Shown one piece after another: positions 939 through 13,873 of a stretch of 25,757 nucleotides of DNA. Position 1 is the first letter of the stretch. Each line of letters begins with the position of its first letter. The notes under the pieces are model-generated. The model made no database searches, was not told where the DNA came from, and saw nothing but the letters and a program-made list of their open reading frames with translations. The DNA comes from an uncultured Chloracidobacterium sp. (GTDB lineage: Bacteria > Acidobacteriota > Blastocatellia > Pyrinomonadales > Pyrinomonadaceae), in NCBI GenBank assembly GCA_964568325.1, contig CAZMQR010000001.1, positions 1-25,757 of the forward strand, read 5' to 3'. Made by a program: the position numbers and the translations under genes.

Positions 939-978
939 TTGTTGCCTGTCACGATTTTTGAGAATAAACTCAAGAGGA

Positions 979-2346
979 ATGAAATTTTACGAGACAGTTC
1001 TCGATCTGATCGGCAACACGCCGCTGGTGCGGATCAATCACCTTACAAAAGAGCACAAGGTAAAGGCACAGGTCTTTGCGAAAATGGAGAGCCTTAATCC
1101 CGGCTACTCGGTAAAGGACCGCATCGGCATCTCGATGATCGAGTGGGCCGAGAAGGATGGCACGCTAAAGAAAGGCGGCACGATCATCGAGGCTACGAGC
1201 GGCAACACCGGTATCGGCCTCGCCCTGGTCGCGGCTGTTCGCGGCTATAAGTGCATCTTTGTGTTGACCGACAAGGTCTCCGTCGAAAAGGTTCGATATC
1301 TAAAGGCAATGGGTGCCGACGTCGTCGTCGTCCCGGCAGCAGCCAAGCCCGGAACGCCCGATCATTATCACGAAACGGCCGCCCGCATCCACAGAGAGAC
1401 GCCGAACTCATTCTATCCCGATCAATACCAGCATCCGGCTAATCCGCTCGCCCACTATCGCACGACGGGGCCCGAGATCTGGAATGACACAGACGGCAAG
1501 ATCACTCATTATGTTGCCGGCATCGGCACCGGCGGCTCGATAAGCGGCACGGGCCGTTATCTGAAGGAACAAAACCCGAAGATCAAGATCATCGGCGCCG
1601 ATCCGTACGGATCGATATTCAAGAATTACAAGGAATCAGGCCGCGTGCCCGAAGCAACGCCTTACCTGGTCGAAGGCATCGGCCAGAGCTTGCCGGTCAC
1701 CAATGCCGACATGAGCGTAATCGACGAGGTCATAAATGTGACCGACCGCGATTCGTTTGAATGTGCCCGCCTGCTCGGACGCCGCGAGGGAATCTTCTGC
1801 GGCGGCTCGACCGGCACGAACTTCTGGGCGGCGTTGAAGGTCGCTAAGGATCTGGACGAAAACGGCGTCGTCGTCTTTATCGTCTGCGACACCGGCGAGC
1901 ATTACCTGACCAAATTCCATTCGGACGAATGGATGAAAGAAAAACTCCTGCTCGAACCCCAACGCATCACCGCCGGACTCATCGCAGAGACAAAGAACGG
2001 CGCGTCGCCTACGGGCGTTATCTTCGTGGGGCCCGACGCCACGGTCGCGGAGGCCCTCGAAATGATGAATTCGCACGGTGTGACCCAACTGCCGGTCATC
2101 GATGGCTACACGGCCGTCGGCAGCCTCCGTGAAAGCGGCCTGTTGACAAAACTGCTGGCTAACCGCGACCTCATGGACGCAAAGATCAGCGACGTGATGG
2201 ACAAGGCCTTCCCGGTCGTCGATGTCGATACAAGTCTCAAAGAGATCAGAGCGAAGCTCCAGCGCCATCCGGCCGTGCTGATCGAGGATTTCAAACGCAT
2301 CACGGGCATCATTACGCGTTCGGATGTGCTTGATATCGAGAAATAA
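979..2346 (+). CDS. cbs: cystathionine beta-synthase (PLP fold II plus C-terminal CBS pair, no heme domain)
   Basis: SVKDRIG (PLP lysine), ATSGNTG, GIGTGGS, then tandem CBS domains; AAGAGGA ribosome-binding site before ATG 979. Confidence 0.85.
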
Positions 2347-2730: not shown

Positions 2731-2798
2731 GTTCAGAGTGCAAGCTTTAGCTTGTCTCCGGCGAACGCATGAACAAGCTAAAGCTTGCACTCTGAACT
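2730..2798. repeat. perfect 26-bp inverted repeat (REP/REPIN-like), possible bidirectional terminator
   Basis: AGTTCAGAGTGCAAGCTTTAGCTTGT (2730-2755) is the exact reverse complement of 2773-2798, with a 17-nt loop; lies between convergent genes. Confidence 0.9.
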
Positions 2799-4203
2799 AC
2801 GGATGCGTCATGTCCTCAGCCTTGACCAGCCGGTCAAAATCTTCGGCTGACAATAGCTCTAATTCCATCGCTGATTCCTTTAACGAAATGCCCTTTTTGT
2901 GGGCATTCTTTGCGATCTTGGCGGCGTTGTCATAGCCGATGTGCTGATTTAATGCGGTCACGAGCATCAATGAGTTTCGCAGGTAGTGGTCGATGTTCTC
3001 GCGGTCGAGTTCGATGCCCGCGATGCAGTAATCGACAAAACCGTGACAGGCGTCGTGGATGAGCCGCACCGAATGCAGGTAGTTGTGGATCATCACGGGC
3101 TTGAAGACGTTCAACTCAAAATTGCCCTGCGAGCCGGCGAACCCTATCGCCGCGTCATTGCCCATCACCTGAACCGCGACCATCGTCATCGCCTCGCTCT
3201 GCGTAGGGTTGACCTTGCCGGGCATGATCGACGAGCCGGGCTCGTTCTCGGGCAGCGTGATCTCGCCGATGCCGCAACGCGGGCCTGAGGCCAACCAGCG
3301 AATGTCGTTTGCGATCTTCATCAGGCTCGCTGCGAGCGTCTTTAACGCTCCTGACGCAAAGACGACTTCATCATGCGCACTCAATGCCGCGAACTTGTCC
3401 GGATGTGCCTTGAAGGGCAAGCCCGTCAGCTCGGCGATCTTTGCCGCCGCGCGGTCGGCGAATTCGGGATGTGAGTTCAGCCCCGTACCGACGGCCGTCC
3501 CGCCGATGGCGAGATCAAGAAGGCCGGGCATCACCATCTCGAGCCGCTCGATATCGCGTTCGACGAGCGCGGCCCAGCCGCCAAACTCCTGCCCGACGGT
3601 CACGGGCGTCGCGTCCTGCAAATGTGTGCGGCCGATCTTGACCACGTCCTTGTATTCCTCGGCCTTTGCTCGAATGGCGTCGGCGACCTTTTGCACTTCG
3701 GGGATCAGGGCGTGCGTCCGCTCGGCGGCAGCGACATACATCGCGGTCGGAAAGGTGTCGTTAGACGACTGTGACTTGTTTACGTCGTCGTTAGGATGGA
3801 TCGGCGCCTTCGATCCCATCTCGCCGCCCGCGATCTCGATCGCGCGGTTCGAGATCACCTCGTTGGCGTTCATGTTCGTCTGCGTGCCCGAACCTGTCTG
3901 CCACACACGCAGCGGAAAATGCGCGTCGAGCTTGCCCTCGATCACCTCGTCTGCGGCCTGCGAGATGAGTTTTGTCTTCTCATTATCGAGCTTCCCGAGA
4001 TCGCGATTCACAATCGCCGCTGCCTTCTTGAGGATGCCAAGCGCGCGAATCACCTCGCGCGGCATCACGTCAAAACCGATGTTAAAGTGCTTCAGCGACC
4101 GCTGCGTCTGCGCTCCCCAATACGCCGATGTCGGCACCTCGATCTCGCCCATCGAATCGGTCTCGATGCGCGTCCTTGCTGCTTTCTCCGTTGCTTCCGC
4201 CAT
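2797..4203 (-). CDS. fumC: class II fumarate hydratase
   Basis: Signature [15 protein letters not shown], plus [12 protein letters not shown] and [10 protein letters not shown]. Confidence 0.98.
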
Positions 4204-4687: not shown

Positions 4688-5893
4688 TCAAATCGCCCCG
4701 ATGTCGGCGAGACACCGTTTGATGCGGTCAAATGAATGTTGAATATCGTTGTCGAGTCCGACCGAGAATCGAACCAGCCCGTCGGTCAGGCCCATCGCTT
4801 CACGTTCCTCTACCGGTATCTCCGACGAGGTACTATGGCCCGGACTGCTGAATAACGTCTTGAAATACCCCAAGCTGACCGCAAGATAACCTACCTTTTC
4901 CTGCTGCATCCGCGTCATTAGAGCGTTCGCTTTCTCGAGCGACCCCGCGTCAAGGGCCAGCATGCCGCCGTAGCCATAGCCCGGATTCATCATCTTCGAG
5001 AGCATCTCGTGCTGCGGATGATCGGGCAGGCCGGGGTAATAGACCTTCAGGCCCAGCTCACTAAACCGCTCGGCCAGGAACATGGCGTTCGCGCTGTGTT
5101 GCCGCATTCTTAGGTGCAGCGAATGAAGGTTTTTCAGAATACTCGCCGCCCGAGTGCTGTCCAGCACCGCTCCTAATAGCATCGATGCCCCGGCATTAAT
5201 GTCGGTCAGTTGATGGATGAATTCGCTGCTTGCGCACACGGCCCCTGCGACACAATCACTCGTTCCGTTAATAAACTTGGTCAGGCTGTGGACGACAACG
5301 TCGGCCCCTAGCCGGATCGGCGAGAGTATCATCGGCGTGAACGTGTTATCAACGACGAGCTTCAAACCGTGCTCGTGGCAGACCGATGACAACGTCGGAA
5401 TATCGGCTACCTCAAGCAGCGGGTTGCTGAGCGATTCGTAATAGATCACTCGGGTCCGATGGTTGATCAGGGACCGCACCTTGTCGAGATCGGCGAGATC
5501 GACAAAATGAACGGTTATGCCGAGCCTAGGGAGGAAATTCTTAAAGAATGCGTACGTCCCGCCGTAGATCGTCCGCGACGAGATGACCTCGTCACCCGTG
5601 CCGCAGAGTTGCAGGATCGCTGACGAGATCGCCGCCATGCCTGACGCCTTGGCCTGTGCTGCCTCGCTGTCCTCCATCCGCGCAAGTGCATCGGACAGAT
5701 ATTTATTGGTCGGATTCCAATGACGCGAATAGAGAAAACACCCTTCGATCTCATGATCGAATAGCTCCTCCATCTTGTCCGGACTCATGAACGTAAACGT
5801 CGAAGAATCCGTGATCGACGGATTCACATCGCCAAATTCGCCAAAGACCAGGAAATCCTGAATGGCATCGCTTGGGTCAAATCTCTCATTCAT
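4688..5893 (-). CDS. methionine gamma-lyase-like PLP enzyme (Cys/Met metabolism family, plant-MGL-like)
   Basis: VVHSLTKFINGTSD (PLP Lys), YSRHWNPT, IYGGT, DNTF, LAVSLGYFKTL...STSSE. Confidence 0.85.
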   Translation of the reverse strand: MNERFDPSDAIQDFLVFGEFGDVNPSITDSSTFTFMSPDKMEELFDHEIEGCFLYSRHWNPTNKYLSDALARMEDSEAAQAKASGMAAISSAILQLCGTGDEVISSRTIYGGTYAFFKNFLPRLGITVHFVDLADLDKVRSLINHRTRVIYYESLSNPLLEVADIPTLSSVCHEHGLKLVVDNTFTPMILSPIRLGADVVVHSLTKFINGTSDCVAGAVCASSEFIHQLTDINAGASMLLGAVLDSTRAASILKNLHSLHLRMRQHSANAMFLAERFSELGLKVYYPGLPDHPQHEMLSKMMNPGYGYGGMLALDAGSLEKANALMTRMQQEKVGYLAVSLGYFKTLFSSPGHSTSSEIPVEEREAMGLTDGLVRFSVGLDNDIQHSFDRIKRCLADIGAI

Positions 5894-6507
5894 ATCGATT
5901 TACGGCAATAACAGTAAACAAACTCCTGGGTCGTCCCGAATGGCGTCCGATGCGACTCGTCGAGGCTCGAGATCAACTCAAACTCATCGCCAAACTCGTC
6001 GTGCATCGTCGCGGGACTATATCTCACCACGTCGAGGCCGCTGCATTTCATCGGCCCGGCGAGGCCGAAGGACGCGATGATCACATGACCACCAGGCTTT
6101 ACCGCACGGTTGACGAGATCAACGTAACGCCGGCGATCCTCCGAAGCGGTAAGAAAGTGAAACACCGCCCTATCATGCCAAACATCATAATGATCTTTGG
6201 CAAGTTCTACGTTTGTAATATCGGCCTCGATCCAATTGACGAGGTTGTTCCGCTCGCCAAGCCGCGCCTTGCTGACCTCTATCGCCGTACTCGAGATATC
6301 GAGCACCGCGACATCGATGAACCCGGCATCCAACAGATCATCCACCAACGTCGAATTGCCGCCGCCCACGTCGATGATCGCCGCGTCCTTTTCGACGCCG
6401 GTCTGAACGATCATCCTGAGCGAATTATCCAGATGCTCGCGAAACCAACTGACCTGACCGTGCGGCTTCGTTGAATACACGTTCTCCCAGTGGGCCTTTT
6501 TATCCAT
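5890..6507 (-). CDS. class I SAM-dependent methyltransferase
   Basis: IIDVGGGNS motif I, LDISSTAI, YDVWHDRAVFHFL; GAGGAG SD; TGA overlaps the lyase ATG (ATGA). Confidence 0.9.
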   Translation of the reverse strand: MDKKAHWENVYSTKPHGQVSWFREHLDNSLRMIVQTGVEKDAAIIDVGGGNSTLVDDLLDAGFIDVAVLDISSTAIEVSKARLGERNNLVNWIEADITNVELAKDHYDVWHDRAVFHFLTASEDRRRYVDLVNRAVKPGGHVIIASFGLAGPMKCSGLDVVRYSPATMHDEFGDEFELISSLDESHRTPFGTTQEFVYCYCRKSI

Positions 6508-6661
6508 TAGAACTCTCCTCTTCGTCCGCGTTTCGGCGTCGTGACCCGACGTCGCATGCGCCGCGAAGTCAGGTCGGATAGCCGAGTTTAGGCAGGATCA
6601 CGAGCTGCAGCAGCAGCCAAAAAGCCACCAGGCCTATCACCCATAGAATGTCGTCGATCAC
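6500..6661 (-). CDS. small membrane protein, candidate selenoprotein (53 aa with TGA at codon 31 read as Sec; 30 aa otherwise)
   Basis: Hand translation: MIDDILWVIGLVAFWLLLQLVILPKLGYPT-(TGA 6571-6569)-LRGACDVGSRRRNADEEESSNG-TAA. The GTG start overlaps the upstream TGA; the TAA overlaps the downstream ATG by 8 nt. Confidence 0.65.
6520..6568 (-). promoter_or_regulatory. putative bacterial SECIS hairpin
   Basis: Directly 3' of the UGA. Upper stem CGUCG/CGACG closes a GGUCA loop beginning at nucleotide 23 after the UGA; CUUCG/CGAAG can pair at the base. Folded by eye only. Confidence 0.5.
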
Positions 6662-7083
6662 GGCCGCGCTCCCATAGGCAGGCCCGCCGCCTTCCACGCT
6701 TCAGTCCCGCCTTTTACAACTATCGCTTGTTTGAATCCGGCATCGATGAGTATCCTGGCCGCCTGCGACGAGCGATTATCGGTGCGGCAGATCAGATACA
6801 CAGGCTCATTCGCCTCCAGCATATCGAGGCTCGCAGCTAGTTTATCGAGTGGGATGTTGCGGGCCCGGTCCGCATGGCCGGCCGCGTATTCTTCCGGTGT
6901 TCTGACGTCAATGAACTGCGAATAGGCAGCCGAAGTCGCCGGCAAAGCGGCCTGAGGTGAGATCTCGGTTACGCCCGGAGCACTTACGACATCTGGTGCA
7001 TCAGTCGTCTTGGTCGGGGCCGACCGGCAGGCCCACGTGATCGCCAACAACGAGATCAGGACAACAATAGGTACTCTATTCAC
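6658..7083 (-). CDS. rhodanese-domain protein, probable lipoprotein
   Basis: IDVRTPEEYAAGH and active-site YLICRTDNRS; hydrophobic leader ending in TWAC (non-canonical lipobox); GTG start with GAGG SD. Confidence 0.88.
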   Translation of the reverse strand: MNRVPIVVLISLLAITWACRSAPTKTTDAPDVVSAPGVTEISPQAALPATSAAYSQFIDVRTPEEYAAGHADRARNIPLDKLAASLDMLEANEPVYLICRTDNRSSQAARILIDAGFKQAIVVKGGTEAWKAAGLPMGARP

Positions 7084-7096
7084 AAAAACCTCGGCT

Positions 7097-8584
7097 TCAA
7101 TTGACCTGAAAATTGCGCATCATGCCCATATCCTCATGCTCGAGATTGTGGCAGTGATATACAAACTTGCCCATAAAATCCTCGAACCTGAGGAGTAAAC
7201 GAACTCGCTCGCCCGGCATAAGCATGAAAGTGTCCTTCCATCCTGAGTCCACAAATCCATATCTTACGCCTTCGTAATTCGTTGCCCCCGATGGGTTCAT
7301 TTGGCGTTCGATGATCTGGAATTGTACGAGATGAATGTGCATCGGATGGGCCATCTGCACCATTCCCGCCTGATTTGGGATGTCCCATACCTCAAGCGTA
7401 TTCAGCGCCACATTCTCATTCGCCGCGACCCCGTTCATCTCAAACATTCCGCCGTTGAGCATGAACATGCCCATCTGAAATGTAATCGGGAATGCTCTCG
7501 GGTTCCCCACGTTGACGGCGTCCTCGAGGCGGTAGCGAGTTATTGCAGACAGCGTCGGCGGCAGCACGAAGTTGTCCACCACGCGGAGCCTGACACGAAA
7601 CGACATGATCGGAAAAGCCGCACCATTCGGCAGCGCGGCCCCACCATTGCCCATGTTTCCCATAGGCGAGAATGCCTGGCTCACCAGCCGACGGTTTCGT
7701 CGCAACGGAGCTCCTCTGAAATCCGCAATGACCTCATATCTTTCACCGGGCGACAGCATCAGATACGGCCGCTCGACCGGCGCCTCGAGTAATCCGCCGT
7801 CAGATGCGATGACCGTCAGCGGCGTTCCGTCGCTCCACGCAAGCTTGTAGAAACGCGAATTTGACCCGTTAAGAAAACGGAGCCGGTACGTTCGGCTTGC
7901 CACATCGACCGAACGCGCCATCTTTCCATTCACAAGCACGCGGTCGCCCAGATACCCAACCATCGTGATCGGCTGATAGGCAAACTGATTGTCGGGGGCA
8001 AATATGCGGTCCTGCAGCACGATCGGTATTTCGGCCTCGCCCGACGGCAGCCCGAGCGCCTGTTCTTCGTCATCAGTGACAATAAAGAGCCCGGCCAGGC
8101 CGCGACAGACCTGCGTCGCGGTCCGCATGTCTGGATGCGGGTGATACCAATAGGTGCCGGCGCGATTCATTACCGTGAACTCATAGACATAACTTGCCCC
8201 CGGCTCGACCGTAAAACGCGGATGAGCGTCCATTGCCTCAGGCACATGCAGCCCGTGCCAGTGCATCAGCGTCATCTCGGGCAGGTTGTTGGTAAAGTTG
8301 ACCCTGATGGTTTGGCCTCGATGCACGCGGATCGTTGGGCCAAGGAAAGAACCGGGAATCGGCTCAAAGTTCTGCGGCGTTCCCTGCACGACCTCGCCCT
8401 CATACCTCCAGACCGATGTCTGAGCCCCGGGCAGCAGGCCTACGGTGGATACAACCGCCCGAAGATTGATGATGACGTCGGGCACCGCAGCGGTCCGCGC
8501 CGCATGTGAGCCAAAGGCCAGCCGATCGCCTAACAGGGCCGCACCTGCGACACCGGTCAACTTAACAAAATCACGTCTCTTCAT
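7097..8584 (-). CDS. TAT-exported multicopper oxidase (CueO/bilirubin-oxidase-like)
   Basis: KRRDFVK twin-arginine leader; copper motifs HWHG, WYHPH, HPMHIHL and HCHNLEHEDMGMM. Confidence 0.93.
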   Translation of the reverse strand: MKRRDFVKLTGVAGAALLGDRLAFGSHAARTAAVPDVIINLRAVVSTVGLLPGAQTSVWRYEGEVVQGTPQNFEPIPGSFLGPTIRVHRGQTIRVNFTNNLPEMTLMHWHGLHVPEAMDAHPRFTVEPGASYVYEFTVMNRAGTYWYHPHPDMRTATQVCRGLAGLFIVTDDEEQALGLPSGEAEIPIVLQDRIFAPDNQFAYQPITMVGYLGDRVLVNGKMARSVDVASRTYRLRFLNGSNSRFYKLAWSDGTPLTVIASDGGLLEAPVERPYLMLSPGERYEVIADFRGAPLRRNRRLVSQAFSPMGNMGNGGAALPNGAAFPIMSFRVRLRVVDNFVLPPTLSAITRYRLEDAVNVGNPRAFPITFQMGMFMLNGGMFEMNGVAANENVALNTLEVWDIPNQAGMVQMAHPMHIHLVQFQIIERQMNPSGATNYEGVRYGFVDSGWKDTFMLMPGERVRLLLRFEDFMGKFVYHCHNLEHEDMGMMRNFQVN

Positions 8585-8596
8585 ACTAATGGTCAA

Positions 8597-9982
8597 CTAC
8601 TCGGCCGCTTTCGTGCTGGCACACGCGGCCGCGCTCACCTCGGTTTCGAGCCCGGCCTCTATCCACGCCGCCGTTCCGCCCGTGACGTTAAAGACCTTCT
8701 TAAAACCCGCATTTTCCAGAATACCGCAGCCGATCGACGATCGGTAGCCGCCCTGGCAGATCACGTAACTCGGTACTGCAGGATCAAGTTGATCGATCTC
8801 TGAGGCAAGTTTGTCGAGCGGGATATTTCGCGACCGATGTGCATGCCCCGCGTCGTGCTCCGCAGGCCGGCGAACATCGACAAGCTGCAGGTACTTCTCG
8901 GTCTTCGACAACTCGGCGACCTCGCCAACCGCTACCTGCTCGATCACTTTTCTCTCACCGGTGTAGTCGCCGATGAATTGATATCCGATGACTGTTTCAT
9001 GCCCTACGCGGGCCAGCCGCATTACAGCCTCATCGACCTGATCCGCACCGTTGGAAATGATCGCTATCGGCGTGCCGATCGGTATCAGAGTGCCCGACCA
9101 CGAGGCAAACTGCCCGCCAAGACCGATATTGATCGAATTCGGAACGTGCCCTGCTCCGTATTCAGTATTCGTGCGGATATCGATAACTACACCGTCAAAA
9201 GCAAACACTTCGTCCGTTGATAGGGCCGTAGGCCTTGCAAGCTCATCAAGCGCGGCCGCGCCCTCAAGGTTCTTTGCCGCACTTCGCGGAAAATACATCG
9301 GCACCTCAGGCTGGTCGGCCGCCACGAGCTTAACGAACTCATCCTTCGTCATTGGCTGCAATGCGTAATTGAATTTTCGCTGTTCGCCGAGCGTTGACCA
9401 GGTCTCTTTTGACAGAGACTTACCGCAAAGCGAACCGGCTCCGTGCGCGGGATAGACCTCAGTATCATCCGGCAGCGGCAGTATCTTTTCACGCAGGGAA
9501 TCGTAGAGCATCCCGCCCATCTGCTCGGCCGTAAACCCTTTAGACCCAATAAGGTCCGGGCGGCCGACATCTCCGATGAAAAGCGTATCGCCCGTGAATA
9601 TCCTGAGCGGCGAGCCGTCAGATTCCGCAATGATCGTGATGCCCTCAGGCGTGTGTCCGGGCGTTTCGAGAAATCTGAGCTTCACACGACCGACCGACAA
9701 CTCGTCGCCGTCGGTAACCTTGAGCGTGGGGAACTTTGTATTTGCACGCTGCCCGTAAACGATCTGTGCTCCGGTCTTAGCGGCTAGCTCAATGTGTCCG
9801 CTGACAAAGTCCGCGTGCGAGTGCGTTTCGATGACGTACTTGATCTTCTGCCCGTTGGCCTCAGCCTCGTCCAGATATTGCTGCACGTCACGCTGCGGAT
9901 CGATGATCGCCGCCTCGCCCTCAGAGCCGAGGTAATATGACGCATGAGACAAACAGCCTAAATAGAATTGCTTGAACTGCAT
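8597..9982 (-). CDS. MBL-fold persulfide dioxygenase-rhodanese fusion (CstB-like)
   Basis: ETHSHADF, TPGHTPE, FTGDTLFIGDVGRPDL, HGAGSLCG; a Cys-less rhodanese domain followed by a catalytic one (YVICQGGYRS); AAGGAG SD before ATG 9982. Confidence 0.88.
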   Translation of the reverse strand: MQFKQFYLGCLSHASYYLGSEGEAAIIDPQRDVQQYLDEAEANGQKIKYVIETHSHADFVSGHIELAAKTGAQIVYGQRANTKFPTLKVTDGDELSVGRVKLRFLETPGHTPEGITIIAESDGSPLRIFTGDTLFIGDVGRPDLIGSKGFTAEQMGGMLYDSLREKILPLPDDTEVYPAHGAGSLCGKSLSKETWSTLGEQRKFNYALQPMTKDEFVKLVAADQPEVPMYFPRSAAKNLEGAAALDELARPTALSTDEVFAFDGVVIDIRTNTEYGAGHVPNSINIGLGGQFASWSGTLIPIGTPIAIISNGADQVDEAVMRLARVGHETVIGYQFIGDYTGERKVIEQVAVGEVAELSKTEKYLQLVDVRRPAEHDAGHAHRSRNIPLDKLASEIDQLDPAVPSYVICQGGYRSSIGCGILENAGFKKVFNVTGGTAAWIEAGLETEVSAAACASTKAAE

Positions 9983-10034
9983 TTCTCCTTTCTCCGTATT
10001 TGTGAACATTTTATCAGTATCGAGTGAGCGGTGC

Positions 10035-10613
10035 TTATTTCTTCACTGCACGGTCACGCCGCCCCGCCCTCGTTGGCGGCAAGTCACAAGCTGCCGAGGC
10101 CTTGTTCCAAGGCATTCGTGCCAGCACCATCGCCATTCCGCACGTATCCGTAACGGCAGCGAACACAAGGCCCGCGCCGACAAAACCGCTGAGAATGAAG
10201 AAATACGGCGTAACTGCAAACCCCACGACAATGCCGATCACGACGAGCAGGCCCGCCGCGAAGCGCACTTGACGCTCGAGCGACCAGACCTTCGATTCGC
10301 CTACGACAATAGGCAGGGCGGCGCCCGCCCACGCGGCCATTCCTCCCTTGATCACATGGATGTCGGTGAAACCCTTGGCCGACAGTTTTTCAGCAGCCTG
10401 TCGTGCGCGGTTTCCCGAGCGGCACATCAGATATACCGGTTTTGAATGATCGATATCGGCCGCGTGTTTCTCAAAATTGGACAACGGCATCAACTGCGCG
10501 TCTGCTATACGCTCGCTGTTGAACTCGGAATATTCCCGCACGTCGATCACCTGACACTCACCGCCAGTTTCGAGCATCTCATTGATCTCGTGCACAGTTG
10601 CTAGTTTGATCAT
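10035..10613 (-). CDS. rhodanese plus DUF2892 membrane protein (YgaP-like)
   Basis: IDVREYSEF and YLMCRSGNRA; C-terminal WSLERQVR...TDTCGM...MPWN two-helix membrane domain. Confidence 0.9.
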   Translation of the reverse strand: MIKLATVHEINEMLETGGECQVIDVREYSEFNSERIADAQLMPLSNFEKHAADIDHSKPVYLMCRSGNRARQAAEKLSAKGFTDIHVIKGGMAAWAGAALPIVVGESKVWSLERQVRFAAGLLVVIGIVVGFAVTPYFFILSGFVGAGLVFAAVTDTCGMAMVLARMPWNKASAACDLPPTRAGRRDRAVKK

Positions 10614-10697: not shown

Positions 10698-11021
10698 ATG
10701 AAAAAGACTATGTCACCTGAGGTAGTCGGCTTAGTCGCCCAGCGGTTCAAAGTGCTGTCAGAACCGCTCAGGTTGCAGATACTGCAGCGTCTGGAAAGAG
10801 GTGAATCGAGCGTCTCGGACATCACCCACGCAGTGGCCTCGACCCAACCTAACGTGAGCAAGCATCTGCGGATCCTGCAAGACGGCGGCCTTGTCGCTCG
10901 CCGTCAGGATGGCAATACGGTTTACTATCGTATCGCCGATGACTCGGTCTTTGAACTCTGTCAGGTTGTCTGCGGGAGTTTGCAAGAGAAGTTTGTTCGG
11001 CAACGATCGATTTTTGCATGA
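10698..11021 (+). CDS. ArsR/SmtB-family transcriptional regulator
   Basis: LSEPLRLQIL, STQPNVSKHLRILQDGGLV and GNTVYYRI winged HTH; the only Cys are C88 and C92. Confidence 0.93.
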   Translation: MKKTMSPEVVGLVAQRFKVLSEPLRLQILQRLERGESSVSDITHAVASTQPNVSKHLRILQDGGLVARRQDGNTVYYRIADDSVFELCQVVCGSLQEKFVRQRSIFA

Positions 11022-11732
11022 TCAAGCCGTAGGCCGAAGGTACCTGACGACAAATCTCGGCGGCTCATCCTCATTCTCCGGCGGCATTTCGACAAAGCCG
11101 GTCTCAACAAGGCCGTTTTCACTAAACCGAGAAAGGTCGCGCCGCGAGCACGGCCACGGCACGGTATTAGGTTCCTCGTCGTCACCTCTCCCGCGCGTGA
11201 CGACGACGAGCTCGCCACCCTCGGCGACAAATGCGGCGATCGAATCGATCACCCGCGGACGCATCTCAAGCGGCAGCGGCTGTATCGTGTAGATCTCCAA
11301 TACAAAGTCAAAAGCTCCGAGCCAGCCAGGAGCGGGCTGAAACAGGTCAGCGGCCTCGAATTGAATGTCCGTATCGCCGTAGAGCTTCTTTGCCCACTCG
11401 ATCGCGGTCGGCGAGAGGTCAAACGCCGTTACCTTAAATCCGAGGTCGTGCAGATACTTAGCATCGTCGCCAAGCCCGCAGCCCACCACGAGCGCGGTTC
11501 GCCCATCGCCTTTCAGCCTGTTTGCTTCCGCCCACTTGTGAAAGTAACTGTTCGGCTCAAGGTCGGCCCACGGTATGACCTCGTTGTCGCCCGCGGCCTC
11601 CCTGTATAGCGCGTCGAACCAGCCCATGACATCGCCCCGCGCCGCAAATTCCTCCTGCAGTTCGCGGACACGCTCGCGTCGTCGTTCAAGGTCAGCATTC
11701 ATATCAGGTGATGAGGGCATCGGCAGCTCCAC
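11022..11732 (-). CDS. class I SAM methyltransferase (thiopurine/thiol MTase-like)
   Basis: ALVVGCGLGDDA, VTAFDLSPTAI, IPWAD; the true start may be ATG 11720 (GGAG SD). Confidence 0.85.
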   Translation of the reverse strand: MELPMPSSPDMNADLERRRERVRELQEEFAARGDVMGWFDALYREAAGDNEVIPWADLEPNSYFHKWAEANRLKGDGRTALVVGCGLGDDAKYLHDLGFKVTAFDLSPTAIEWAKKLYGDTDIQFEAADLFQPAPGWLGAFDFVLEIYTIQPLPLEMRPRVIDSIAAFVAEGGELVVVTRGRGDDEEPNTVPWPCSRRDLSRFSENGLVETGFVEMPPENEDEPPRFVVRYLRPTA

Positions 11733-11835: not shown

Positions 11836-13245
11836 TTGGCAGAACAATTTGACGTAACTATCATCGGCTCGGGGCCTGGCGGCTATGTTGCCGCGGTGCG
11901 TGCCGGACAGCTTGGATTAAAGGTCGCTCTGATCGAGAAAGAAAAGGACGCACGGCTGGGCGGCACTTGCGGCCTGCGGGGCTGTATACCGACAAAGGCA
12001 CTGCTGAATGCCGCTCATCTGTATCAGAAAGCAGGACATTTTGAGCAGTTTGGGCTAAAGGTCGATGGCCTGTCGTTCGATTTTCCGTCGATCCAGAAAT
12101 ACAAATCCGACGTCGTGGCAAAAAACTCAGCCGGGGTGACCTATCTGATGAAAAAGAACAAGGTCACGGTCTATAACGGCTTCGGGAAGATTCTCGACAA
12201 AGGCAAAGTCGAGGTCGCACTCGCCGACGGCAAGAAGCAGACGATCGAGACAAAGAACATTATCATCGCCACCGGCTCGGTCGTCCGGCCGATCCCCGGC
12301 TTTGAGACCGACGGCAAGACGGTCGTCAATTCCGATCACATCCTGGAACTGCAAAAGGTGCCGAAATCGCTGATCGTCATGGGCAGCGGCGCGGTCGGTT
12401 CGGAGTTCGCGAGTGTTTACAGCCGGTTTGGCTGCGACACGACGCTCGTCGAGCTGCTTGATCGTATTGTCCCGCTCGAAGACGCGGATTGTTCAAAAGA
12501 ACTCGCACGTGCATTCAAGAAGCAGGGTATCAAGGTCGAGACCGGCCTTAAGCTCGACAAGTTGGAAAAAACGAAGTCGGGCGTCAAAGTCTCGGGCAAG
12601 AACGCCAAAGGCGACACCGTCATGCTCGAAGCTGAGATGCTGCTCGTCGCCGTCGGCCGCATGGCATATCTCGAAGGCCTCGGCCTTGAAAAAACAAAAG
12701 TAAAGGTCTCGGACCGCGGCACAGTCGAGGTCAATGAATACTGCGAGACCGCCGAGCCCGGCATCTATGCCATCGGCGACGTTATCCCGACCGCACAACT
12801 CGCCCACCTCGCCTCGAAAGAAGGCATTATGGTCGTCGAAAAGATCGCAGGCAAAAATGTGGAGCCGATCAAGCACAACCTCGTCCCGAACTGCACCTAC
12901 TGCGACCCCGAAGTCGCCAGCGTCGGCCTGACCGAAGAGAAAGCAAAGGCCGCAGGTTATGACGTGAAGGTCGGTAAATTCCCGTTCTCAGCCTCTGGCA
13001 AAGCACGCATCCTCGGCGAGACCGACGGCTTTGTAAAGATCGTCGCCGAAAAGAAATACGATGAGGTTCTCGGCGTCCACATCATCGGCCCGCACGCCAC
13101 GGAACTCCTCGCCGAAGCCTGCGTCGGCATGGCCCTCGAAACCACTGCCGACGAACTAGGCCGCATAATGCACGCCCACCCAACCGTGAGCGAATCCGTC
13201 ATGGAAGCCGCCGAAGGTGTGCATGATCTGACGATTCATATGTAA
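11836..13245 (+). CDS. lpdA: dihydrolipoyl dehydrogenase (E3)
   Basis: GSGPGG, redox GGTCGLRGCIPTK, GSGAVGSE, HAHPTVSE; TTG start after a GAGG SD. Confidence 0.96.
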   Translation: MAEQFDVTIIGSGPGGYVAAVRAGQLGLKVALIEKEKDARLGGTCGLRGCIPTKALLNAAHLYQKAGHFEQFGLKVDGLSFDFPSIQKYKSDVVAKNSAGVTYLMKKNKVTVYNGFGKILDKGKVEVALADGKKQTIETKNIIIATGSVVRPIPGFETDGKTVVNSDHILELQKVPKSLIVMGSGAVGSEFASVYSRFGCDTTLVELLDRIVPLEDADCSKELARAFKKQGIKVETGLKLDKLEKTKSGVKVSGKNAKGDTVMLEAEMLLVAVGRMAYLEGLGLEKTKVKVSDRGTVEVNEYCETAEPGIYAIGDVIPTAQLAHLASKEGIMVVEKIAGKNVEPIKHNLVPNCTYCDPEVASVGLTEEKAKAAGYDVKVGKFPFSASGKARILGETDGFVKIVAEKKYDEVLGVHIIGPHATELLAEACVGMALETTADELGRIMHAHPTVSESVMEAAEGVHDLTIHM

Positions 13246-13270: not shown

Positions 13271-13873
13271 ATGGAAACCAGACACCAAGTTCCGAAGTTC
13301 TGTTGGTTTAACTTGATGTTCTTGCAGGACTGTCAGACCCATCTCGATTCAAACTCAGGGAAGAAGATTGCTGACATCTATGCCGAATTTTGTAATAAGC
13401 ATGGACTGGATGGCGACGCGTCGTATTCATATCCGCTCATTAACCAGGGCCTGGTACTGACTGCACTATATGGCTTGCTAGTATATCCCCAGGAGTTGTG
13501 GGAGAAAGACAAGGAAATGGGGACGAACTTTGCTTTTTTCTCGAGGCGCGTTTTCAATTTCAGCGATTTGGTTGAACATCCAAAGTCGATCTGGTCTGAA
13601 GAACAATTTCGCAGTTTGGTCACTTACGATTTCATTAGACGGATTCGACATTCTATCGCGCACGCAAATGTTTCGATTGGTACTGATAGTCAGCGATATC
13701 TTTTTTGGAATCTGAACAGAAGAGATGAAAAGGACTTTGAGGTCAGCGCAAGTCATCAGGAAATTGGTGGTTTCATTACGGAAATTGCCAAGTATTTTAC
13801 AAACGAAGTTAGTTCAACATCTTCCTCGAAGACCGATATATCACTCATTCCTTACTTAGGTCCGATCAGTTGA
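13271..13873 (+). CDS. HEPN-domain protein (pEK499_p136-like), putative RNase
   Basis: RHSIAH fits the HEPN Rx4H motif; N-terminal LTALYGLLVYPQE helix is typical of that subfamily; GC is lower than the flanks. Confidence 0.7.
   Translation: METRHQVPKFCWFNLMFLQDCQTHLDSNSGKKIADIYAEFCNKHGLDGDASYSYPLINQGLVLTALYGLLVYPQELWEKDKEMGTNFAFFSRRVFNFSDLVEHPKSIWSEEQFRSLVTYDFIRRIRHSIAHANVSIGTDSQRYLFWNLNRRDEKDFEVSASHQEIGGFITEIAKYFTNEVSSTSSSKTDISLIPYLGPIS

Follow-up and report, generated by a model that had tools for sequence, protein, structure and literature searches.

Bacterial selenoproteins with an in-frame selenocysteine insertion sequence (SECIS) element are a well-known kind of protein, and several described systems resemble the one treated here. 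SELENOK and SELENOS are eukaryotic single-pass membrane selenoproteins, and the selenocysteine (Sec, U) of SELENOS pairs with a nearby Cys as a selenenylsulfide. TsoA (NF045695, LULAXC) belongs to the small bacterial selenoproteins of Tso/Sao operons. It is short, carries its Sec a few residues from a Cys, and has a rhodanese-type partner (TsoB, a rhodanese/DsbD fusion). The MerT-like (PF02411) Sec/Cys mercury-transport proteins are small inner-membrane proteins with a Cys/Sec pair near the membrane surface and an ArsR/MerR-type regulatory context. E. coli YgaP and stand-alone YgaP-like transmembrane proteins (PF11127/DUF2892) are membrane-anchored parts of sulfur transfer by rhodaneses and have a conserved Cys at the membrane. 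The present analysis concerns a small gene on the minus strand of a 25,757-nucleotide (nt) stretch (positions 1 to 25,757 of contig CAZMQR010000001.1, assembly GCA_964568325.1), referred to as the window, from an uncultured Chloracidobacterium sp. of the Pyrinomonadaceae. The frame from 6661 to 6500 is very probably a genuine, previously uncatalogued gene for a membrane-anchored selenoprotein of about 53 residues, with a proposed selenol/thiol role. The family is new, although its kind is not.

The small protein shares with SELENOK and SELENOS one transmembrane helix near the N-terminus and a disordered, charged cytosolic tail bearing the predicted Sec. In contrast to them, it lies in a context of sulfide detoxification and not of endoplasmic reticulum-associated degradation, its Sec would sit six residues past the helix and not at the extreme C-terminus, and a bacterial in-frame hairpin takes the place of a SECIS element in the 3' untranslated region. 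At the level of Pfam, where there was no hit of any kind, no sequence similarity to either protein is seen. By motif, TsoA is still the nearest, and its function is likewise known from context alone. However, there was no NF045695 match at E <= 1, the taxa and the operon differ, and T-U-x4-C behind LPKLG is found here instead of L-U-L-A-x-C (U-x3-C). Compared to the MerT-like proteins, the small protein has one helix instead of three and no Pfam match, and its neighbours are sulfur enzymes, with no mer genes nearby. YgaP-like proteins are encoded in the same operons, directly adjacent to the small gene in several lineages, but they are not homologous to its product (no PF11127 match) and form a two-helix hairpin with a WCPM-type motif where the small protein has a single helix.

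The initial annotation of this DNA had noticed that the only large gap of a minus-strand operon was filled by a frame with an in-frame TGA, and had read it as a candidate selenoprotein. All coordinates of that frame were confirmed, including the overlap of its GTG with the rhodanese TGA and of its TAA with the start region of the methyltransferase gene. The features are as follows.

6500 to 6661, minus strand: whole small gene, 53 codons plus TAA, with UGA as codon 31, predicted to be read as selenocysteine (translation, and homologues with the same in-frame TGA)
6669 to 6673, minus strand: GGGAG, a Shine-Dalgarno-like motif 7 nt before the GTG (read from the sequence)
6659 to 6661, minus strand: start codon GTG, in a GTGA overlap with the rhodanese stop TGA (6658-6660); its position matches the ATG starts of the homologues
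6587 to 6658, minus strand: single transmembrane helix, residues 2-25, conserved core WLLLQLVILP (AlphaFold2 model and family conservation)
6569 to 6571, minus strand: UGA, putative Sec codon 31, preceded by an invariant Thr (family comparison)
6554 to 6556, minus strand: TGC, Cys36, partner of U31 (U-x4-C), with TGC/TGT wobble among homologues
6534 to 6554, minus strand: predicted SECIS hairpin, arms 6551-6547 and 6541-6537, apical loop GGUCA at 6546-6542, two outer pairs past an A-C mismatch (fold and covariation)
6500 to 6502, minus strand: TAA stop, which shares its bases with the start region of the methyltransferase gene (ATG at 6505-6507)

The frame thus encodes a hydrophobic helix and PKLGYPT, meets TGA at 6571-6569, continues with LRGACDVGSRRRNADEEESSNG and ends at TAA 6502-6500. 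This TAA lies inside ATGGATAA, which also holds the methyltransferase ATG at 6507-6505. Around the UGA the residues read LPKLGYPT-U-LRGAC, followed by a charged tail, so that U31 and C36 form a U-x4-C motif.

When related genomes were searched in six frames, homologues turned up in roughly half of those of the same genus, and also in several further families of the class. Exactly one in-frame TGA was present in each homologue, and the alignment spanned it. A scan of one genome per species gave 168 loci, the best 80 of which came from metagenome-assembled genomes (MAGs) labelled Pyrinomonadaceae, Blastocatellia or Acidobacteriota. The aligned codon was TGA in 94 of the 96 Pyrinomonadaceae-type loci read, TGC in one (L059) and GGA in one (L079). 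The GGA, which places Gly at the site, is found at L079:4183-4236 in an Aridibacter-labelled MAG. A phylum-wide profile search located the small gene in 94 of 301 Acidobacteriota genomes (60/187 genera), nearly always with one TGA. For other Acidobacteriota families, 40 loci were fetched and the motif was found in 39, all of which (39/39) have T-U-x4-C with TGA. Across 121 distinct TGA-form sequences, the Thr before the UGA and the UGA itself are invariant, and the Cys at +5 is kept in 120. The comparison of homologues therefore shows UGA-31 to be a conserved sense position, aligned with Cys in homologues, and not a stop.

Conservation and codon periodicity also run on behind the UGA. In the same 121 sequences, the entropy at codons +3, +4 and +5 reaches 1.77, 1.97 and 0.99 bits at the third position, against at most 1.05 bits at the second. 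Such third-position wobble argues that the region behind the UGA is coding, and comparison thus shows a coding constraint that persists downstream of UGA-31. At codons +7 and +8, the third positions are unusually constrained (0.44 and 0.64 bits), which points to an overlapping RNA constraint.

The RNA element in question is a hairpin, CGUCG-GGUCA-CGACG (6551-6537), whose loop begins 23 nt after the UGA. The initial annotation had placed it at this very position and likened it to a SECIS element, and the likeness has held up: covariation accompanies its conservation, and the published bacterial model matches it in spacing and loop. In a comparison set of 85 distinct Pyrinomonadaceae-type sequences, 64 have a stem of 5-9 base pairs (bp) and an apical loop GGUC(N), AGUC(U) or AGUU starting 23-24 nt past the UGA. 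A register-free hairpin search found 63 different stem versions among the hairpins with the loop at +23/24. Pairs were counted in an ungapped alignment of 82 sequences, in which sequences with a 4-nt loop were scored as broken. Pair 29-39 was UA in 32, CG in 18 and UG in 11 sequences; pair 27-41 was CG in 55, UA in 11 and GC in 3; pair 26-42 was AU in 43 and GC in 7. None of 500 shuffles reached the observed covariation score. The key compensation couples a change of Val GUC to Ala GCC with a synonymous change of Arg CGA to CGG, and is therefore not a product of selection on the protein alone. RNAalifold on a MAFFT alignment returned no structure because 4- and 5-nt loops shift the 3' arms out of register in the ungapped alignment; it was replaced by the explicit pair counts and the register-free search. 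The hairpin differs in a low-GC relative from another lineage, where a 7-bp stem carries the loop AGGU at +17. Rfam had no matching family, the sole hit being a chance snoRNA match (E = 3.8). In the bacterial SECIS model, a G is found at the first or second position of a small apical loop located 16-37 nt from the UGA (PMC13188914). The window loop (GGUCA, +23) and the RGUC-type loops of the family, mostly at +23/24, agree with this model (PMC13188914). Comparison thus shows the conservation, 23-24 nt downstream of the UGA, of a stem-loop in keeping with the bacterial SECIS model.

The machinery for Sec insertion is present in the host. The source assembly is a 2.7-Mb MAG of 472 contigs, 80.5% complete, in which all four of selA, selB, selC and selD were found: SelA at 518 bits, SelB at 360 bits, tRNA-Sec (selC) at 71.5 bits, and SelD with one in-frame TGA within the gene. 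The latter (G000 contig C61:3875-4798, locus L009) makes SelD itself a predicted selenoprotein and its gene the second Sec gene of the assembly. In the 301 sampled Acidobacteriota genomes, selA occurs in 231, and 93 of the 94 carriers of the small gene have it. The lone selA-negative carrier (G271, 95% complete) has selB at 363 bits. The other selA-negative genomes of the sample yielded zero small-gene matches. No statistic is given for this co-occurrence because related genomes are not independent samples. The count of 231 includes one genome flagged as unpublished (G082), in which selA is present and no small-gene match was found. Taken on the comparison of homologues, hairpins and machinery, the product of the small gene can be predicted to be a selenoprotein with only slight doubt. 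None of the refuting conditions named in the initial annotation applied: homologues run on past the UGA, Cys-containing ones exist, and the Sec machinery is present.

The initial annotation had also held the gene to be invisible to standard gene callers, and indeed they shorten it to 29-42 residues or omit it. A word-indexed protein search gave mostly stubs of this length ending in …PKLGYPT, including NCBI-sourced entries, and one full-length protein of 59 residues with Cys at the UGA site. An exhaustive profile search over 1.84 billion protein representatives gave 879 matches at E <= 0.001. The residue at the UGA site was read in the best 150 of these 879. Most of the 150 are full-length (45-90 residues, …LP[KRW][LF]G[IV]xTCMSGAC…), 29 have W at the site and 22 end there. 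The single W entry that was inspected proved to be a TGA translated as Trp by the caller. Homologues with Cys at the site thus exist in number: a TGC ortholog (P0018/L059), P0003, and dozens of …TCMSGAC… proteins, many of them full-length. Neither the Sec form nor ten Cys forms matched Pfam-A or NCBIfam 20.0, and the nearest ESM Atlas cluster is named 'hypothetical protein'. Literature motif searches found nothing matching the family. Nor does a small transmembrane family with T-U-x4-C figure among the 119 prokaryotic selenoprotein families inventoried in May 2026 (PMC13188914).

Before the UGA, an AlphaFold2 model built on the family alignment has one helix at residues 2-25 (predicted local distance difference test score of about 90), and it has a disordered tail. 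In 122 family members, the pre-helix flank has a mean of 0.16 K+R and 1.0 D+E, and the 20 post-helix residues have a mean of 3.75 K+R. By the positive-inside rule, this charge bias predicts an N-out/C-in topology, which would bring U31 and C36 to the cytoplasmic membrane face. The product would then cross the membrane once, with its short acidic N-terminus on the outside and its helix ending in LPKLG. Its T-U-x4-C pair would sit about six residues away from the membrane surface, in a cytoplasmic tail that is flexible and basic.

What the protein may do has to be read from its neighbours. The minus-strand operon of the window runs from a rhodanese-YgaP gene through a metallo-beta-lactamase with two rhodanese domains, a multicopper oxidase, a signal-like rhodanese, the small gene and a methyltransferase to a Cys/Met-metabolism enzyme dependent on pyridoxal 5'-phosphate (PLP). 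Frequencies of the neighbours refer to Pyrinomonadaceae loci with sufficient flank (53 upstream, 62 downstream).

10698 to 11021, plus strand: divergent ArsR-family (HTH_5) regulator (Pfam), with a homologue in 45 of 53 loci
10035 to 10613, minus strand: rhodanese fused to a YgaP-like transmembrane domain (Pfam), first operon gene, with an upstream orthologue in 44 of 53 loci
8597 to 10009, minus strand: metallo-beta-lactamase fold plus two rhodanese domains, persulfide-dioxygenase-rhodanese type (Pfam and NCBIfam), the most constant neighbour
7097 to 8596, minus strand: multicopper oxidase (CueO-like) exported by twin-arginine translocation (TAT), in the window operon and in few related loci
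6658 to 7083, minus strand: upstream rhodanese of 141 residues (Pfam Rhodanese, 1.1e-17), with an N-terminal signal or lipoprotein-like segment
5890 to 6507, minus strand: downstream methyltransferase dependent on S-adenosylmethionine (Pfam), in translational overlap with the small gene, not a conserved partner

The dioxygenase-rhodanese gene lies upstream on the same strand in 48 of the 53 loci, and a rhodanese domain ends less than 200 nt upstream of the small gene in 23. In loci without a directly upstream rhodanese, a TauE/SafE sulfite exporter or a SulP-STAS permease is found in its place. For instance, L043, L055, L091, L097 and L096 have a DUF2202 protein and then TauE/SafE or SulP-STAS immediately upstream. 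A TlpA/AhpC-like redoxin lies downstream in L055 and L091. As for the methyltransferase and the PLP lyase, they were considered as functional partners and rejected, since they are found downstream in only 11/62 and 8/62 loci.

Other genes around the operon were also noted. A TPMT/TehB-like methyltransferase (11022-11732, minus strand) and a pyridine-nucleotide-disulfide oxidoreductase (11836-13245, plus strand) lie beside the ArsR gene, and both recur near the operon in many related loci. TPMT/TehB enzymes methylate selenium and tellurium. A 200-residue protein with a HEPN pEK499_p136 domain (13271-13873, plus strand) is apparently unrelated to the operon. At 958-2346 (plus strand), 2797-4203 (minus strand) and 4688-5893 (minus strand), a PALP+CBS-domain (cystathionine-beta-synthase-like) gene and a methionine-gamma-lyase-like PLP enzyme gene are arranged around fumarase C; the region around the operon is rich in genes of sulfur-amino-acid metabolism.

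Outside the Pyrinomonadaceae, in 39 loci of other Acidobacteriota families, the neighbourhood is mixed, with no single dominant partner. The commonest upstream neighbour is a class-V aminotransferase of the cysteine-desulfurase type, which accounts for 6 of the 78 upstream neighbour proteins from these loci. Another five of the 78 are YgaP-like transmembrane proteins of 60-79 residues with a WCPM motif, four of which lie against the small gene almost or entirely without a gap and the fifth 260 nt upstream. Such stand-alone proteins (…FTNWCPM…) adjoin the small Sec/Cys gene in distant lineages (L172, L176, L179, L157, L125), and are a candidate membrane partner of the small protein. A physical interaction between the two is a hypothesis; complex prediction for a natural adjacent Cys-form pair (the YgaP-like protein of L125 with P0169) scored 0.01, which counts neither for nor against it. 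Cys forms in unrelated metagenomic lineages have neighbourhoods akin to these. One of them lies in an operon of the same kind, in the order ArsR, rhodanese-YgaP, peroxiredoxin, dioxygenase-rhodanese, small gene, CMD (AhpD-like), efflux genes and TauE. Other Cys forms lie between thioredoxin-like genes, beside a DsbD_TM-thioredoxin fusion with VKOR-DsbA nearby. Further ones stand behind a pair of extracytoplasmic function (ECF) sigma and zf-HC2 genes, with ArsR, resistance-nodulation-division (RND) efflux, YHS, DsrE and YgaP-like transmembrane genes.

A working scheme can be proposed from these data. SelB with Sec-tRNA would bind the hairpin, and selenocysteine would be inserted at codon 31. 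The resulting membrane-anchored selenol/thiol pair may cycle through a selenenylsulfide at the inner membrane face, where its partners, in the membrane or of rhodanese or thioredoxin type in the cytoplasm, could supply it with sulfane sulfur or receive reducing equivalents from it. Likely candidates would be the rhodanese domains of the persulfide-dioxygenase-rhodanese and rhodanese-YgaP proteins, together with the YgaP-like domain, TauE or SulP. The initial annotation had already suggested a thiol/selenol carrier in a sulfur-handling operon. The operon side of this suggestion stands for the upstream genes, as persulfide-dioxygenase-rhodanese (48/53 loci), rhodanese-YgaP and TauE/SulP are conserved there, but not for the downstream methyltransferase. 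The proposed carrier function itself, drawn from this context, agrees with the conserved neighbourhood. A sulfur/redox-relay role for the U-x4-C membrane protein is the likeliest of the functions considered, but a tentative proposal that falls just short of being probable.

Several observations weigh against the reading as a Sec-dependent relay protein. The assignment of Sec to codon 31 comes from sequence comparison. Taken alone, the window hairpin is not significant (z = -1.3, with 20/200 shuffles folding equally well), and the minimum-free-energy fold of 76 nt favours an alternative pairing; the case for the hairpin must be a comparative one because single-sequence folding gives no support. 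One lineage (L036/L120) reads T-U-MRPKSD, so that the second Cys is absent while the hairpin is kept. The 141-residue rhodanese looks exported. Its N-terminus is a hydrophobic signal-like segment ending in …LLAITWAC, which could be a lipoprotein signal, and if the protein is exported (PspE-like), the membrane would separate it from the predicted Sec. Finally, the sulfur-relay role draws on part of the family, because the neighbourhood is heterogeneous outside the Pyrinomonadaceae.

The same selenoprotein might instead use its U/C-x4-C pair at the membrane to bind soft metals, for example Cu(I), Hg(II) or Ag(I), or to pass them on within a metal-resistance module, with no sulfane sulfur involved. 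The CueO-like multicopper oxidase of the window operon and the ArsR/SmtB-type regulator speak for such a role, as do the ArsR, CzcB/RND efflux and YHS-domain genes beside Cys forms in other phyla. Mercury transporters, too, are catalogued in Sec forms (PMC13188914). Nevertheless, the multicopper oxidase is found in only a handful of about 80 related loci, and metal-type neighbours (multicopper oxidase, ArsR, RND, YHS) are rare beside the Sec form. The constant neighbours are persulfide-dioxygenase-rhodanese, rhodanese-YgaP and TauE/SulP, and thioredoxin-like and DsbD neighbours are also present. A metal-binding function is therefore considered unlikely.

A further proposal takes the small frame of the window mainly as a selenium-dependent translational coupler, in which decoding of UGA-31 gates the expression of the methyltransferase and the PLP lyase. 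It draws on the stop/start overlap (ATGGATAA), on the presence of a methyltransferase directly downstream in the 11 loci mentioned above, and on the weak similarity of this enzyme to Se/As-related methyltransferase families. However, the peptide sequence is conserved phylum-wide regardless of the downstream gene, and most loci have other or oppositely oriented genes there. Coupling would at most be an add-on to the protein's own function, and as the main role it is very improbable.

It could also be argued that UGA-31 is a true stop, that the product is a membrane peptide of 30 residues, and that the hairpin is another RNA element such as a terminator, an attenuator or an mRNA stabiliser. The helix and the LPKLG motif do lie entirely before the UGA, caller products of 29-42 residues end in …PKLGYPT, and conservation of the hairpin would be expected in this case too. 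But a true stop does not account for the wobble-type variation with a kept amino-acid sequence behind the UGA, for the Cys at +5 in 120/121 sequences, or for full-length homologues with TGC/TGT instead of TGA. The gene is, moreover, seen only in genomes with Sec machinery in the 301-genome sample, the stem has no following U-tract and the downstream genes are variable. There is thus very little to be said for termination at this codon. No better placed is the idea that read-through of the UGA inserts a standard amino acid, by near-cognate Trp or Cys or by a suppressor. The inserted residue cannot be read from the sequence alone, and some database entries show W, but in the one W entry checked, the caller had used another code to translate a TGA. 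The genome has the full Sec machinery, the SECIS-type hairpin stands at the canonical distance, the site aligns with a redox-type Cys in a classical Sec/Cys exchange, and TGA is an ordinary stop in the same operon.

Trivial causes were also considered. All sampled words of 5800-7200 are contained in each of 14 metagenomic DNA runs from activated sludge, wastewater, biofilm and digester samples, and two sludge metatranscriptome libraries yielded contigs over 6469-6716 and 6434-6659 that show zero differences. An assembly error at the TGA is ruled out because these runs and libraries agree. The metatranscriptome contigs fit transcription, although DNA carried over into an RNA library might also account for them. 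An alternative genetic code is excluded because TGA terminates neighbouring genes (the rhodanese at 6658-6660), and a pseudogene by the conservation in more than 120 genomes.

The small gene represents a selenoprotein family missed by standard annotation, with public records holding either hypothetical stubs of 29-42 residues or nothing. Acidobacteriota are a dominant phylum of soil and wastewater. Since the gene is found in about one third of their sampled genomes, censuses of the Acidobacteriota selenoproteome are incomplete. With its tiny open reading frame and a SECIS element overlapping conserved codons, the family also offers a clean training case for selenoprotein-aware gene callers.

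A wider view, which is speculative and rather doubtful at this stage, is that the gene founds a large uncharacterised family of single-pass membrane redox micro-proteins in Sec or Cys forms. In persulfide detoxification, they might serve sulfur-anion exporters and YgaP-type membrane rhodaneses as the membrane-proximal selenol/thiol relay subunit, and be a functional counterpart of SELENOK/SELENOS in bacteria. The family's dependence on Sec in Acidobacteriota might be so strong that loss of the Sec machinery brings loss of the gene and not a switch to Cys. The predicted protein would place a selenol at the membrane in the persulfide-dioxygenase/rhodanese pathway of sulfide detoxification, for which, to our knowledge, no selenium-dependent component has been described. 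Its Cys-form relatives in Planctomycetota-like and other lineages are equally uncharacterised, and a single experiment on either form would contribute to the annotation of hundreds of gene clusters.

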